Shown: positions 39,606 through 44,878, counted from the stretch's first letter. The stretch is 64,000 nt of DNA from Escherichia phage GEP001 (PV173775); one strand, 5' to 3'. A program made the numbers and translations. Notes: generated by a model from the letters alone, not told the origin.

Positions 39606-41033
39606 GTGGTAGAAATTATTCTTTCTCATCTCATATTTGATCAAGCTTATTTTTCAAAAGTTTGGCCATATATGGATTCAGAATATTTTGAAAGTGGTCC
39701 AGCTAAAAATACATTCAAATTAATTAAATCTCATGTCAATGAGTACCATAGCGTTCCATCTATTAATGCGTTAAATGTTGCATTAGAAAATAGTTCATTT
39801 ACTGAAACAGAATATTCTGGTGTAAAAACACTTATTTCGAAACTAACCGATTCTCCAGAAGACCATAGCTGGTTAGTAAAAGAAACAGAAAAATACGTTC
39901 AGCAAAGGGCGATGTTTAATGCTACGTCTAAAATAATTGAAATTCAAACTAATGCTGAGCTTCCTCCGGAAAAACGCAATAAGAAAATGCCAGATGTAGG
40001 TGCTATTCCTGACATCATGCGCCAAGCATTATCAATTTCATTTGATAGTTACGTTGGTCATGATTGGATGGATGACTACGAAGCACGTTGGCTATCTTAT
40101 ATGAATAAAGCTCGTAAGGTTCCATTTAAACTCAAAATTCTAAATAAAATTACTAAAGGCGGAGCTGAAACTGGAACACTGAATGTTTTAATGGCTGGTG
40201 TTAACGTTGGTAAGTCATTAGGTCTGTGTTCATTGGCAGCAGATTATTTGCAGCTCGGACATAATGTTCTTTACATTTCCATGGAAATGGCTGAAGAAGT
40301 CTGTGCTAAACGTATTGATGCTAATATGCTTGATGTTTCTCTTGATGACATTGATGATGGGCATATTTCTTACGCTGAGTATAAAGGAAAAATGGAAAAA
40401 TGGCGTGAGAAATCTACTCTCGGTCGTTTAATCGTTAAACAGTATCCTACTGGTGGAGCAGACGCTAATACATTTCGATCGCTTTTAAACGAATTGAAGC
40501 TCAAGAAGAATTTTGTTCCAACAATCATTATTGTCGACTATCTAGGTATTTGTAAATCTTGCCGCATCAGAGTTTACTCAGAAAATAGTTACACAACTGT
40601 TAAAGCCATCGCAGAAGAATTGCGTGCTCTGGCTGTTGAAACCGAAACTGTTCTTTGGACTGCAGCACAGGTTGGTAAGCAAGCTTGGGATTCTTCTGAT
40701 GTTAACATGAGCGATATTGCAGAATCTGCCGGTCTTCCAGCAACAGCCGATTTTATGCTTGCGGTCATTGAAACTGAGGAGTTAGCAGCTGCTGAACAAC
40801 AACTCATTAAGCAAATCAAATCACGATATGGCGATAAGAATAAATGGAATAAGTTTTTGATGGGTGTTCAAAAAGGAAATCAGAAATGGGTAGAAATTGA
40901 ACAAGATTCTACTCCAACTGAAGTGAACGAAGTGGCAGGTTCACAGCAGATTCAAGCTGAGCAGAATCGCTATCAAAGAAACGAATCCGCTCGAGCTCAG
41001 TTAGATGCTTTGGCAAACGAATTAAAATTTTAG
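39606..41033 (+). CDS. 41: replicative DNA helicase gp41
   Basis: 475 aa; GTG start after AAGGAG; Walker A GVNVGKS; DnaB-like; matches T4 gp41. Confidence 0.95.
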   Translation: MVEIILSHLIFDQAYFSKVWPYMDSEYFESGPAKNTFKLIKSHVNEYHSVPSINALNVALENSSFTETEYSGVKTLISKLTDSPEDHSWLVKETEKYVQQRAMFNATSKIIEIQTNAELPPEKRNKKMPDVGAIPDIMRQALSISFDSYVGHDWMDDYEARWLSYMNKARKVPFKLKILNKITKGGAETGTLNVLMAGVNVGKSLGLCSLAADYLQLGHNVLYISMEMAEEVCAKRIDANMLDVSLDDIDDGHISYAEYKGKMEKWREKSTLGRLIVKQYPTGGADANTFRSLLNELKLKKNFVPTIIIVDYLGICKSCRIRVYSENSYTTVKAIAEELRALAVETETVLWTAAQVGKQAWDSSDVNMSDIAESAGLPATADFMLAVIETEELAAAEQQLIKQIKSRYGDKNKWNKFLMGVQKGNQKWVEIEQDSTPTEVNEVAGSQQIQAEQNRYQRNESARAQLDALANELKF

Positions 41034-41073
41034 TTTACAAGCCGACAAGACTATGGTATAGTAGTCTTGTCGG
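41033..41073 (+). promoter_or_regulatory. early promoter of dmd with perfect 12-bp inverted repeat around -10
   Basis: GTTTAC 41033-38, TATAGT 41057-62; arms CCGACAAGACTA (41042-53) and TAGTCTTGTCGG (41062-73). Confidence 0.6.
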
Positions 41074-41091
41074 TTAAATGAGGAGATTTTT

Positions 41092-41274
41092 ATGGAATTG
41101 GTAAAGGTAGTTTTTATGGGGTGGTTTAAGAATGAAAGCATGTTTACTAAAGAAATCACAATGATGAAAGATGACGTTCAATGGGCTACTACTCAATATG
41201 CTGAAGTTAATAAAGCGCTAGTTAAAGCTTTCATTGATGACAAGAAAGTATGCGAAGTGGATTGCCGAGGATAA
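41092..41274 (+). CDS. dmd: Dmd antitoxin (inhibitor of RnlA/LsoA toxins)
   Basis: 60 aa; sequence matches T4 Dmd as recalled; early promoter with perfect inverted repeat upstream. Confidence 0.8.
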   Translation: MELVKVVFMGWFKNESMFTKEITMMKDDVQWATTQYAEVNKALVKAFIDDKKVCEVDCRG

Positions 41275-41275
41275 T

Positions 41276-41533
41276 ATGCATATTGTTTTATTTAAACCTA
41301 CTCCGTATAACGTCAGGAAAAATACTCAATTCAAAGCACTTATCGCAGATACGTGGGAATTGGTATTAGATATTCCAGCAGAAGAAAGCCCTCCATTTGG
41401 TCGAGTGGAATTTATTAAGTTTGCTGTGCGCCCTACAAAGCGGCAGATTCGCCAATGCAAAAGATACTTTCGTAAAATCGTCAAGTTAGAGAAACAGTTT
41501 GTAACATGTGATTATACAGAAGTTTTAAAATAG
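41276..41533 (+). CDS. hypothetical protein (85 aa)
   Basis: GAGGA SD; ATG 2 nt after dmd stop. Confidence 0.55.
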   Translation: MHIVLFKPTPYNVRKNTQFKALIADTWELVLDIPAEESPPFGRVEFIKFAVRPTKRQIRQCKRYFRKIVKLEKQFVTCDYTEVLK

Positions 41534-41535
41534 TA

Positions 41536-41578
41536 GTTTACAAGCTGATAGAGTTGTGTTATAGTAATTCTATCAGCT
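41536..41578 (+). promoter_or_regulatory. early promoter with 9-bp inverted repeat flanking -10
   Basis: GTTTAC 41536-41, TATAGT 41560-65; arms AGCTGATAG (41543-51) and CTATCAGCT (41570-78). Confidence 0.55.
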
Positions 41579-41596
41579 AATCGCGGAGAAAAGAAA

Positions 41597-41851
41597 ATGA
41601 TGCTAGTTAATAGAGAATATCAGTTTAAATCAGAAGAAGATTTGGAAAAATTCGCGAGCGGTTGTGAACTGAATAGACGCACAGCTAAAGTCATAGGATT
41701 AAAACCCTTTACAGTTCTAGATTGTGAAGTTTCTAAATTCCGCAGAGGGTGTTCTATTAGCGGTCATGCTCTGGTTGATGGGAACACATTTTTCTTTGTT
41801 TTTAGCGTCAGAGAACTTTTATTGATTAACGAACTTGAGGAAATAAAATAG
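41597..41851 (+). CDS. hypothetical protein (84 aa)
   Basis: GGAG SD 9 nt upstream; own early promoter with inverted repeat. Confidence 0.55.
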   Translation: MMLVNREYQFKSEEDLEKFASGCELNRRTAKVIGLKPFTVLDCEVSKFRRGCSISGHALVDGNTFFFVFSVRELLLINELEEIK

Positions 41852-41915
41852 TTTACTTTTGTTTTAAACATGTTATTATAGACCTATCAAAACAAACGAG
41901 TAAATGGAGAATAAA

Positions 41916-42095
41916 ATGTCTAAAGTATCAGGTTATCAATTATTAACACAAGAACAACGTTCAGAGATGGATTCTTTACAAGAACGGTGTCAGCATAGAA
42001 ATAACGCACTTGATTCATTTTTATTAGTTGAATATGAAAACTTGTGCTCTAGACTTGAAAAAGAATATGTTCATCAACATGGAGGAGAAGAATGA
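41916..42095 (+). CDS. hypothetical protein (59 aa)
   Basis: GGAGAATAAAATG initiation motif; alternative ATG at 41904. Confidence 0.45.
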   Translation: MSKVSGYQLLTQEQRSEMDSLQERCQHRNNALDSFLLVEYENLCSRLEKEYVHQHGGEE

Positions 42096-42198
42096 AACTG
42101 AAATCACCAATTATTGTAATTTGTCTGTTTGCTTCTACTAGTGTTTACTTTTGTTGAAAATTGAGATACTATAAACATAAACTACTGAGGAGATTATC

Positions 42199-42492
42199 AT
42201 GAAAAAATTTATCTTTGCTGCAATTTTTGCTTTATCTTCTTGCGCTGCTCAGCCTGCTATGGCGGGTTATGACAAAGATTTGTGTGAGTGGTCTATGACT
42301 GCAGATCAGACTGAGGTTGAAACTCAGATTGAAGCCGATATTATGAATATCGTTGAGCGTGATCGTCCTGAAATGAAAGCTGAAGTGCAAAAACAACTTA
42401 AGTCTGGTGGTGTAATGCAGTATAATTATGTTCTGTATTGCGATAAAAACTTTAATAATAAAAATATCGTAACCGAAATCACAGGCGAATAA
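42199..42492 (+). CDS. sp: Spackle periplasmic protein (lysozyme inhibitor / superinfection exclusion)
   Basis: 97 aa with cleavable signal peptide; size, position between dmd and 61 and sequence consistent with T4 Sp. Confidence 0.7.
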   Translation: MKKFIFAAIFALSSCAAQPAMAGYDKDLCEWSMTADQTEVETQIEADIMNIVERDRPEMKAEVQKQLKSGGVMQYNYVLYCDKNFNNKNIVTEITGE

Positions 42493-42493
42493 T

Positions 42494-43126
42494 ATGATTT
42501 ATTATATGCACAAAAATCCACCGTTTAAATATGGTAAATTTCCTGATGCACAATGTTATAATATAACACCTAATGAAAATAACCGTGGATATCTTATTGG
42601 CACAATTTTTGTAATTGTTAAAGATAACGAAATCGTTGCCTGGGCAGATTTTAAAGGTACAACATATGATGTTAATCCGGTGCCTTTCACATATTACAAT
42701 TTAATGGATTTGGCATACGATTATAATTGGTTTAATCATGATACTTTGGCTCATATTGAAGGTGTAGGATTTGATATTTCATATTCGGAATACACTTTAA
42801 GCCCTATGAGTCGAGCCCATAAAGAACCTGAATATTTTTCATTTAGGAAACGTGTAAACTTTAAACGCAGCACAGAGTATATCGGTGGAATCTTTGTTAA
42901 AGATAATCGAATTATTCGTATTAATTATCCTTTGAGCGTTAGTCAAAAAGATATTGATGTTGATTTAGATTTCACTGAAAATAATATTAATAATATTGCT
43001 TCTGTGTATTTTGGTATCGATCACAAAATTGTAATATGTGGATATGAATTACCGTTTGAAGAACAGCCTAAAGTAAAAGTTTCTATTGACGATCAAATTT
43101 TTAATGCTTTTATGAATAAAGGTTAA
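42494..43126 (+). CDS. hypothetical protein (210 aa) with two internal VKDN-motif repeats
   Basis: ATG 1 nt after sp stop; C-terminal SIDDQIFNAFMNKG shared with next ORF. Confidence 0.55.
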   Translation: MIYYMHKNPPFKYGKFPDAQCYNITPNENNRGYLIGTIFVIVKDNEIVAWADFKGTTYDVNPVPFTYYNLMDLAYDYNWFNHDTLAHIEGVGFDISYSEYTLSPMSRAHKEPEYFSFRKRVNFKRSTEYIGGIFVKDNRIIRINYPLSVSQKDIDVDLDFTENNINNIASVYFGIDHKIVICGYELPFEEQPKVKVSIDDQIFNAFMNKG

Positions 43127-43127
43127 T

Positions 43128-43484
43128 ATGTATAGTTCTGAATTTTCATATTTAAAAATGGAAAAAATTTCATACGATTTTATAGATGAAAAGGTTTATT
43201 ACAGTTTCCATGAACCGCGTTTTAATAGTGAGGTTGGGTTTATTGTAGTAAAAGACAATTTCATTTTAAAGATATATTCGGCATTAAAGGATTTTCACTA
43301 CGAAAATATTAACCTAAAATTTGATAAAGAAAACGTTCGTAATTGTGCAGTAACAATTACAGGAAATAAAGGTACATGTGTTATGCTATCTGATGAAATT
43401 AATGATTTGCTAAATGATGTAGAAAAGGTTGCTGTTCCATCGATTGATGACCAAATTTTTAATGCTTTTATGAATAGAGGTTAA
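43128..43484 (+). CDS. hypothetical protein (118 aa), single copy of the VKDN-motif domain
   Basis: ATG 1 nt after upstream stop; C-terminus PSIDDQIFNAFMNRG nearly identical to upstream ORF. Confidence 0.55.
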   Translation: MYSSEFSYLKMEKISYDFIDEKVYYSFHEPRFNSEVGFIVVKDNFILKIYSALKDFHYENINLKFDKENVRNCAVTITGNKGTCVMLSDEINDLLNDVEKVAVPSIDDQIFNAFMNRG

Positions 43485-43485
43485 T

Positions 43486-43650
43486 ATGAAAACATATAAA
43501 GAATTTATCAAAGAAGATATGGTAGCTGGAGATTCGGGTGGTAATCCTGAAAATATCTCTACTGGAACAACGTCAGGCGCTGTAGTAAATAAAGGCCCTG
43601 AACAGATTCCTAAAAAGAAAAAAGAGGAATCTAAAGAAAAAGAAGAGTAA
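43486..43650 (+). CDS. hypothetical small protein (54 aa), Lys/Glu-rich tail
   Basis: GAGG SD; ends 2 nt before gene 61 start; not in ORF track. Confidence 0.4.
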   Translation: MKTYKEFIKEDMVAGDSGGNPENISTGTTSGAVVNKGPEQIPKKKKEESKEKEE

Positions 43651-43652
43651 AA

Positions 43653-44681
43653 ATGTCATCAATACCTTGGATTGATAATGAGTTTGCATATCGTGCATTA
43701 GCTCATTTACCTAAATTTACACAAGTAAATAATAGTTCAACTTTTAAATTGCGGTTTAGATGCCCTGTTTGTGGAGATTCAAAAACCGACCAAAATAAAG
43801 CTCGTGGATGGTATTATGGCGATAATAATGAAGGAAATATTCATTGTTATAACTGTAACTATCATGCACCAATCGGAATATATTTAAAGGAGTTTGAACC
43901 CGATTTATATCGTGAGTATATCTTTGAAATAAGAAAAGAAAAAGGTAAAAGTCGTCCAGTAGAAAAACCTAAAGAACTTCCTAAACAACCTGAGAAGAAA
44001 ATAATTAAATCTCTTCCGTCATGTGTTAGATTAGATAAACTGGCGGAAGACCATCCAATTATAAAATATGTAAAAGCTCGCTGTATTCCAAAGGATAAAT
44101 GGAAATATCTTTGGTTTACATCTGAATGGCCTAAATTAGTTAATAGTATAGCACCAGGAACATATAAAAAGGAAATACCTGAGCCTCGTCTTGTTATTCC
44201 AATTTATAATGCTAATGGAAAAGCTGAGTCTTTTCAAGGACGTGCATTAAAGAAAGATGCTCCTCAAAAATATATCACCATCAAAGCTTATCCTGAGGCA
44301 ACAAAAATCTATGGTGTTGAACGAGTTAAAGATGGTGATGTATATGTTCTAGAAGGACCTATAGATTCACTTTTTATTGAAAATGGTATAGCTATTACAG
44401 GTGGTCAATTAGACCTAGAAATTGTTCCATTTAAAGATAGACGAGTATGGGTTTTGGATAATGAACCTCGTCATCCTGATACTATTAAACGAATGACTAA
44501 ATTAGTTGACGCAGGAGAAAGGATTATGTTTTGGGACAAATCTCCATGGAAATCAAAAGATGTTAATGATATGATTAGAAAGGAAGGTGCAACCCCTGAA
44601 CAAATTATGGAATATATGAAAAATAATATTGCGCAGGGGTTGATGGCTAAAATGCGGCTATCTAAATATGCTAAGATTTAA
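43653..44681 (+). CDS. 61: DNA primase gp61
   Basis: 342 aa; N-terminal zinc ribbon CPVCGDS...CYNC; Toprim-type core; matches T4 gp61. Confidence 0.9.
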   Translation: MSSIPWIDNEFAYRALAHLPKFTQVNNSSTFKLRFRCPVCGDSKTDQNKARGWYYGDNNEGNIHCYNCNYHAPIGIYLKEFEPDLYREYIFEIRKEKGKSRPVEKPKELPKQPEKKIIKSLPSCVRLDKLAEDHPIIKYVKARCIPKDKWKYLWFTSEWPKLVNSIAPGTYKKEIPEPRLVIPIYNANGKAESFQGRALKKDAPQKYITIKAYPEATKIYGVERVKDGDVYVLEGPIDSLFIENGIAITGGQLDLEIVPFKDRRVWVLDNEPRHPDTIKRMTKLVDAGERIMFWDKSPWKSKDVNDMIRKEGATPEQIMEYMKNNIAQGLMAKMRLSKYAKI

Positions 44682-44878
44682 ATTAACCCAACTAAAGCAA
44701 ATGCTAAATCTACGAATGTATCAAGAGTAATTACTGGAATACTAACGCCATGAGCAATAGCAACTGGCGATAAAACAAAATTCCAAAGTAAAATTCCTAT
44801 CATAGCAGAAATAGTAAAAGCTATACGTTTTTTATTACCTTTGATGGCATTAACAAGTGCCATTAATTTTTGTACCAT
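44678..44878 (-). CDS. small hydrophobic membrane protein (66 aa), opposite strand
   Basis: minus-strand ATG preceded by AAAGGAGG SD at 8 nt; two hydrophobic segments; convergent with gene 61. Confidence 0.55.
   Translation of the reverse strand: MVQKLMALVNAIKGNKKRIAFTISAMIGILLWNFVLSPVAIAHGVSIPVITLDTFVDLAFALVGLI

Follow-up and report, generated by a model that had tools for sequence, protein, structure and literature searches.

We analysed a stretch of 64,000 nucleotides (nt) of the Escherichia phage GEP001 genome (PV173775), hereafter called the window, and focused on the small genes lying between the replicative helicase gene 41 and the primase gene 61. The locus is an expanded form of the anti-toxin island of T-even phages, in which dmd, tifA, sp and adfA are orthologous to characterised T4 genes. 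Our main subjects are adfA, which encodes anti-DarT factor A, the gene for a protein of 118 amino acids (aa) directly behind it, which is a paralogue of half of AdfA, and the peptide DDQIFNAFM near the end of both proteins, the DNA of which lies in a direct repeat. The features of the locus are listed in Table 1.

Table 1. Genes, promoters and repeats of the island in the window (PeSL, promoter-early stem-loop)
Feature	Coordinates	Strand	Basis or annotation
Gene 41, replicative helicase, left border	39606..41033	+	ECO07P2 label 'ATP-dependent helicase 41'
PeSL-type promoter with hairpin before dmd	41022..41086	+	Scan score 10/12; also present in T4
dmd (61.5)	41092..41274	+	Pfam Dmd, E 1.6e-46
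tifA (61.4), 85 aa	41276..41533	+	Pfam DUF7279, E 2.2e-20; phrog_2375, E 2.4e-38; syntenic with T4 61.4, in one operon with dmd
Second PeSL, before ORF 41597	41525..41589	+	71% direct repeat of the dmd PeSL
84-aa accessory ORF	41597..41851	+	phrog_2980, E 3.2e-20
Hairpin-free early promoter driving ORF 41916	41851..41879	+	z -0.2, unstructured
59-aa accessory ORF (alternative start 41904)	41916..42095	+	phrog_37915, E 3.5e-43
sp early promoter, same as in T4	42143..42175	+	Alignment with the T4 61.4-sp intergenic region
sp (spackle, 61.3)	42199..42492	+	Pfam T4_Spackle, E 7.6e-46; periplasmic superinfection-exclusion protein
adfA (61.2), anti-DarT factor A	42494..43126	+	Pfam PF23813, E 1.7e-138
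49-nt direct repeat, left copy	43082..43130	+	Codes SIDDQIFNAFMNKG, stop, next start
118-aa ORF, AdfA C-domain paralogue with tail	43128..43484	+	BLASTP, Pfam AdfA
49-nt direct repeat, right copy	43440..43488	+	Codes SIDDQIFNAFMNRG, stop, next start
61.1, 54 aa	43486..43650	+	phrog_1823; length as T4 gp61.1, sequence nearly identical
Gene 61, primase, right border	43653..44681	+	Annotated DNA primase in ECO07P2, T4 and T2

The original prediction, made from the sequence alone, had placed dmd, sp and at least six further small open reading frames (ORFs) between the two replication genes. All of them were found where it had put them, and the number of further ORFs is exactly six. In a comparison of gene content, the T4 island consists of dmd, 61.4, sp, 61.2 and 61.1 only, and the window has three extra genes, ORFs 41597, 41916 and 43128. 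The 2.6-kb island stretch is 99.8% identical to that of Escherichia phage ECO07P2 (Tequatrovirus). It is matched by 672 phage records, most of them with 77% coverage and only 5 with at least 80%. PADLOC gave zero hits.

The dmd-tifA-adfA region of T4-like phages has been named a probable 'anti-TA island' (TA, toxin-antitoxin), and the neighbouring genes were proposed there to be further anti-toxins (Srikant, Guegler and Laub 2022, PMC9391042). Dmd inhibits the toxins RnlA and LsoA, and TifA (gp61.4) is an inhibitor of ToxN (PMC9391042). The window shares with the published island its locus, gene order, early-promoter organisation and the anti-toxin prediction for neighbouring genes, and differs from it by the same three added ORFs. 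A variable cluster housing counter-defence genes, as originally predicted, is therefore a correct reading, yet one that was already published. Among the ORFs proposed as counter-defence candidates, those at 41276-41533 (TifA) and 42494-43126 (AdfA) have already been characterised.

The stop codon of one gene and the start codon of the next stand together in the sequence TAATATG at four junctions, namely dmd/tifA (41272-41278), sp/adfA (42490-42496), adfA/118-aa ORF (43124-43130) and 118-aa ORF/61.1 (43482-43488). These junctions are consistent with translational coupling along operons, and tifA may be coupled to dmd in this way. Because the genes joined by TAATATG downstream of sp are without a further promoter-like element, sp, adfA, the 118-aa ORF and 61.1 probably form a single transcription unit.

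AdfA and its half-size paralogue

AdfA was discovered through escape mutants of phage RB69 and directly binds and inhibits DarT1, a DNA ADP-ribosyltransferase toxin (LeRoux et al. 2022, as summarised in PMC11825919; PMC11257639). Residue 164 of the RB69 protein determines its specificity. In a bacterial two-hybrid assay, the variant AdfA(R164H) binds DarT1, and it rescues the growth of RB69 on DarTG1 cells (PMC11257639); T4 AdfA has a His at the site of RB69 residue 164 (PMC11257639, PMC11825919). The protein encoded in the window matches Pfam family PF23813 with 459.3 bits (cut-off 27), residues 1-210 covering profile positions 1-211, and its gene sits between sp and 61.1/61, as 61.2 does in T4. 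It is a full-length orthologue, 72% identical to the T4 protein and 81% to the Mosigvirus type.

The window allele differs from those of T4 and RB69 at the specificity position, and its first 58 residues are of the RB69 and not the T4 type. Its Asn167 (42992-42994) corresponds to RB69 R164 and T4 H165. Among 20 distinct sequences this position is occupied by His in 16, by Arg in 2 and by Asn in 2, the latter being the window protein and the representative of cluster P0001. The window AdfA thus lacks the His that marks the active allele, a property that defines the allele and not membership of the family. Residues 1-58 (42494-42667) are 39% identical to T4 and 91% to RB69, and residues 59-196 are 84-87% identical to T4. 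This mosaic identity implies that an exchange took place inside adfA.

The 118-aa protein aligns to AdfA residues 98-210 with 35% identity (BLASTP, E 1e-11). It scores 34.4 bits against the Pfam AdfA profile, above the same cut-off, matching positions 113-211 only. When the 14-residue tail was left out, the similarity to the C-terminal half of AdfA was still significant (Smith-Waterman z 6.4, reached in 0 of 2000 shuffles; profile alignment z 5.1). ORF 43128..43484 is hence a further copy of the domain, as had been proposed. The protein keeps the helix that carries the specificity residue in AdfA, but has one domain plus tail, encoded in a separate gene, and not the two-domain architecture of about 210 aa. 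It is a paralogue of half of AdfA and not an AdfA orthologue.

The gene for the 118-aa protein is absent from T4 and is the sole AdfA-like gene in T2. Phage T2 has been described as naturally lacking an adfA homologue (PMC11257639, PMC11825919), yet it carries this half-size paralogue, a point that we did not find in the literature searched. About 300 phage records contain the gene in intact form, with 94-100% identity. Its ratio of nonsynonymous to synonymous substitution rates (dN/dS) lies between 0.07 and 0.57, mostly at 0.1-0.3, from small counts. The many intact genomes, the status as only copy in T2, the low dN/dS and the confident structure model argue that the gene is functional and not decaying, and a dead remnant is unlikely. 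The 118-aa protein may be a toxin-binding inhibitor with a target of its own.

AdfA itself can be divided into an N-terminal domain (residues ~1-97), a C-terminal domain (~98-196) and a tail (197-210). The original prediction saw in it two copies of a domain of roughly 100 aa, each with a VKDN motif. A Smith-Waterman comparison of the N-terminal with the C-terminal half gave z 2.4 for the window protein and z 4.2 for T4 AdfA, and a profile alignment with a column-shuffle null gave z 3.5. The N-terminal half aligned to the family of the 118-aa protein with z 4.6 in the profile alignment. With shallow alignments (effective number ~1.5), hhalign aligned only a hairpin of 11-14 residues, even for the pair that BLASTP detects. 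We therefore reran it with a more diverse profile merged from single-domain proteins and C-terminal halves, with the tail removed, and the N-terminal half then aligned over 76 columns.

The same domain is suggested by the AlphaFold models. In AdfA (mean predicted local distance difference test, pLDDT, of 71.9 for the whole protein) the N-terminal half has strands at residues 2-8, 20-25, 38-43, 46-51 and 57-64, a helix at 67-76 and a strand at 87-90. The C-terminal half has strands at 100-104, 114-120, 127-136, 139-146 and 151-159 and a helix at 162-173, with a tail helix at 198-207. The 118-aa protein (mean pLDDT 84) has strands at 8-17, 22-29, 34-42, 45-51 and 56-64, a helix at 67-78, a strand at 84-87, a helix at 89-100 and a tail helix at 106-115. 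The order of five strands, a helix and a strand is alike in all three, and in each the hairpin that connects strands 3 and 4 has the VKDN motif as its turn. The site of RB69 R164, located by residue mapping, falls in the helix after strand 5 of the C-terminal domain. A search of the PDB sequences with the family profile found nothing better than E 0.36. The peptide DYNWFNH (AdfA residues 76-82) was considered as a relic of an internal tail and rejected, because its location ahead of strand 6 does not correspond to that of the tail.

These comparisons make it likely that AdfA goes back to an old duplication and that its two halves are diverged, tandemly fused copies of a single small domain. 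Alternatively, the two halves could be alike by chance or by convergence on a common sheet-plus-helix motif. In that case AdfA would be one protein with two lobes, and the sole true duplicate, a partial one, would be the 118-aa ORF. We regard this as rather unlikely: three independent statistics agree (P ~0.006 for the profile alignment, 0.0016 for a further statistic and 4.8e-4 for the merged hhalign profile), the alignments, over 76 columns, keep the predicted strands and helix in register, and a fusion is plausible, as the domain also occurs as a free-standing gene. Neither the two-domain repeat of AdfA nor the tail was described in the literature that we searched.

The DDQIFNAFM tail and the slot after sp

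The nearly identical tails of ORFs 42494 and 43128 that the original prediction pointed out are real, and at the DNA level they form the 49-nt direct repeat of Table 1. Its two copies are 92% identical and 358 nt apart, a spacing that equals exactly the length of one gene plus a single base. Of the nine codons of DDQIFNAFM, six vary synonymously among the copies, but the amino acids are the same in all of them, which argues for selection on the peptide. The last tail codons (AGA/AAA GGT TAA TATG) also supply the next gene with its ribosome-binding site and start codon. Within a genome, paralogous tails hardly differ (38 of 39 nt identical in locus L007), which suggests gene conversion.

Using 201-nt junction probes over phage records, we found adfA followed by the 118-aa gene in 157 records, sp followed by the 118-aa gene (T2 type) in 141, and adfA followed by 61.1 in 228, so that the three arrangements are about equally common. 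In all loci examined, adfA located before the 118-aa gene ends in GAC GAT...AAA GGT (NKG), while adfA located before 61.1 (T4 type) bears the tail codons of the 118-aa gene, GAT GAC...AGA GGT (NRG). This codon pattern indicates that one exchange within the repeat relates the arrangement with both genes to that with adfA only. In mechanistic terms, a single exchange between the two tail copies would convert the former into the arrangement of T4. T2-type loci have AGAGGTTAGTATG between sp and the 118-aa gene, which resembles the end of the tail and may be either a remnant of a deleted adfA or a plain conserved ribosome-binding site. In the literature searched we found neither an exchange at the tail repeat as the origin of the T4-type locus nor the T2-type locus as a third type.

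It could be argued that the 118-aa ORF and the tail are functionless by-products of recombination, the tail being conserved as DNA, either for translational coupling or as a patch for recombination, and the 118-aa gene being a passenger, left over from a duplicated adfA 3' half. The high DNA identity of the repeat, its inclusion of the translation signals of the next gene, the fact that paralogous tails within a genome (as in L007) are closer to each other than to orthologous tails of other genera, and the ability of T4 to manage without the 118-aa gene would all fit with this. However, the amino acids of DDQIFNAFM are fixed despite the synonymous changes, and this in all three body types and in several genera. 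With an identity of only about 35% to the C-terminal half of adfA, the 118-aa gene is no recent remnant; it is under purifying selection, its product has a confident fold, and it is the sole member of the family in the 141 T2-type genomes. We therefore consider a by-product origin improbable.

The slot after sp is occupied by further proteins with the same end peptide. In phages with genomes of about 170 kb, a type of about 145 aa is found directly downstream of sp, in some loci alone and in others with a homologue of the 118-aa protein, 117-119 aa long, behind it. Single-domain variants of 125 aa (P0026) and 120 aa (P0029) also lie directly after sp. The 145-aa type matched the model of the 118-aa protein in BFVD (E 2.4e-4) and aligned to the merged profile in hhalign over 99 columns (P 6e-4). 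A HMMER search against 1.84 billion representatives retrieved only 10, all from T-even phages, and no remote relatives. In viral and metagenome contigs, DDQIFNAFM was present in T-even-type contigs only, beside sp wherever the upstream flank was present. The idea that the tail mimics a host peptide was rejected, as the exact back-translated DDQIFNAFM had 0 matches in 185,579 bacterial and archaeal genomes. The AdfA, single-domain and 145-aa proteins thus appear to constitute a family that is confined to T-even phages, occupies the slot after sp and ends throughout in DDQIFNAFM. A family of differing bodies after sp that share this peptide was not found in the literature searched.

As these proteins would invariably be co-transcribed with sp, they might instead work together with spackle in superinfection exclusion or other envelope functions. 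Their position directly after sp was invariant in every locus examined, and the superinfection genes imm and imm.1 of RB69 adjoin sp as well. Against this, AdfA(R164H) binds DarT1 in the two-hybrid assay and rescues RB69 on DarTG1 cells (PMC11257639), and by eye AdfA, the 118-aa and the 145-aa proteins have neither a spackle-like hydrophobic leader at the N-terminus nor a long hydrophobic stretch. A role in exclusion is accordingly very improbable.

Early promoters, upstream cassettes and neighbouring genes

Four matches to early promoters of the type GTTTAC...TATA(G/A)T are present in the island, before dmd, ORF 41597, ORF 41916 and sp. The one before dmd (-35 box TTTACA at 41034-41039; -10 box TATAGT at 41057-41062) contains an inverted repeat with 12-nt arms (41042-41053/41062-41073) of 100% complementarity, and the RNA is predicted to fold with -23.9 kcal/mol (z -7.6). 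In the second PeSL (-35 box at 41537-41542; -10 box TATAGT at 41560-41565), the arms lie at 41543-41555/41566-41578 and the fold has -18.0 kcal/mol (z -5.6). Within the promoter of ORF 41916, the element GTTTACTTTTGTT recurs in direct orientation in the sp promoter (18 nt with 89% identity, spacing 292), which is also unstructured (z +0.9). Inverted-repeat promoters had been assigned to ORFs 41597 and 41916; this was confirmed for the former, whereas the assignment to ORF 41916 was mistaken, the second hairpin promoter being that of dmd.

Early promoters with a stem-loop that overlaps the -10 box have been described as PeSLs, which lie beside accessory ORFs and mediate the shuffling of cassettes (PMC2839356). 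The window elements resemble the published PeSL cassettes (Arbiol et al. 2010, PMC2839356; Comeau et al. 2014, PMC4122927) in having strong sigma-70-like early promoters with a stable stem-loop over the -10 box, in standing before small accessory ORFs, in being direct-orientation repeats and in lying at insertion/deletion boundaries between close relatives, here the junctions of the window, Ozark, T4 and T2. They differ in that a promoter with a stable intergenic stem-loop before a small ORF is present at 41022-41086 and 41525-41589 but not at 41851 and 42143, that is in only two of the four promoters, and in that the window stems are not of the GGGG...CCCC type. The stems are not followed by a U-tract, and a terminator scan of the window elements found none. 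Moreover, the exchange of adfA and the 118-aa gene would proceed through a coding repeat, the tail, and not through a PeSL.

In the junction comparison every cassette starts with ...TAAAATAG(TA)GTTTAC. In phage Ozark, ORF 41597 is joined straight to the sp promoter at the shared GTTTACTTTTGTT, and in T4 and T2 it is 61.4 that is fused onto the sp promoter. ORF 41597 occurs in 83 phage records, the matches listed being T4-like genomes, and is absent from T4 and T2. ORF 41916, which has a GGAG 6 nt upstream of the ATG at 41916, is rarer, with only 20 phage records, and is absent from T4. Both ORFs may have been gained or lost through exchange between the early-promoter/PeSL repeats. We also considered ORF 41597 as an orthologue of GoF (T4 comC-alpha, 141 aa), since RefSeq labels it 'goF mRNA metabolism modulator'. 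Its residues 4-44 align to the N-terminus of T4 GoF (BLASTP, 37% identity, E 2e-8) and the label reflects this shared N-terminal module; beyond these 41 N-terminal residues the proteins are unrelated, and the assignment was rejected.

Some further observations concern the neighbouring genes. Phages with the 145-aa type encode, after the tail-bearing genes, a 73-aa protein with the TifA-like motif RPTKRQIRKLKK (L006 3359-3580, L007 3311-3532, L011 3083-3304), apparently the product of a second gene of the tifA kind within that island. In RB69 (L019 4012-4690), imm and imm.1 are inserted between 61.4 and sp, and exclusion genes therefore cluster at the island in Mosigvirus. The conserved core of 61.1 (DMVAGDSGG...TGTTSGAVVNKGPEQIP; window 43486-43650) corresponds to the C-terminus of a 155-aa protein of a Mosigvirus contig (L016 3579-4046). 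The RB69 annotation (L019 2318-2784) divides this region into the two ORFs 032c and 61.1, a split that suggests a frameshift or a misannotation. A T-even-like metagenomic phage (L021 1371-1991) has a gene for an HNH endonuclease between gene 41 and the dmd region. At the right border, the minus strand carries a hydrophobic ORF of 66 aa (44678-44878) that shares 4 nt with the end of primase gene 61 and is labelled a hypothetical protein in the annotations of ECO07P2, Ozark and T2.

A proposed exchange of inhibitor bodies through the tail

Taken together, we favour, with moderate confidence, an explanation in which AdfA consists of tandem domains, the 118-aa protein is a free-standing C-domain copy, the family members share one slot and have toxin-binding bodies, and exchange is mediated by the tail. 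Each body would bind a toxin stoichiometrically and have a target range of its own, be it DarT variants or another toxin, and the 118-aa ORF would be a copy of that AdfA domain which bears the specificity. The tail would have a function common to all of them and be maintained by selection at the protein level, and its DNA would offer ~40-50 nt of homology that, along with the conserved end of sp, allows phage recombination to add, drop and swap bodies. More speculatively, DDQIFNAFM could be a shared 'handle' on interchangeable toxin-recognition bodies, making the slot after sp a polymorphic cassette system for inhibitors. Such a handle might block a site that is conserved among DarT-like toxins, or it might bring in a partner shared by all bodies.

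Several observations weigh against this explanation. BLASTP found no alignment between the N-terminal and C-terminal halves of AdfA, and the hhalign probability for the duplication was only 32%, so that the sequence support for it is weak. With regard to the proposed three copies of the domain, the third copy is strongly supported and the pair inside AdfA moderately, by the order of structural elements and by weak P values (6e-3 to 4.8e-4). The body of the 145-aa type gave no significant plain profile alignment to the others (z 0.6-1.3). The tail was modelled with low confidence (mean pLDDT 51-62 per 10-residue block), and its conservation is in part at the nucleotide level, because its last three codons carry the ribosome-binding site of the next gene. 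Asn167 of the window AdfA is neither the neutralising His nor the inactive Arg. Finally, a T4 adfA deletion had no phenotype on DarTG1 (PMC11257639), which leaves the natural target of AdfA uncertain.

Other phage-encoded anti-DarTG factors provide a comparison. AdfB of vibriophage ICP1 is likewise a small direct binder of DarT, in which single substitutions switch specificity (PMC11481870). AdfN (gp30.3, NADAR) of T-even phages, in contrast, is an enzyme that removes the modification and does not bind the toxin. A sequence relation of AdfB or AdfN to the AdfA family was not detected.

As the locus and two of its candidate genes had been characterised before, the new points are architectural: the half-size paralogue, the repeat within AdfA, and an invariant tail that would double as a recombination site. 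The domain with the DarT-specificity residue is also encoded by itself, as a separate gene, in over half of the Tequatrovirus genomes that were probed, including T2, which has served experimentally as an 'adfA-less' phage. If the more speculative idea of a handle is correct, T2-type phages would have in the half-size protein their missing factor against DarT (or against another toxin), and a single run of 40-50 nt would both code for the handle and be the site at which specificities are shuffled. The locus thereby bears on the diversification of phage toxin inhibitors, with a coding repeat that would do here what PeSLs do elsewhere in T4-type genomes.

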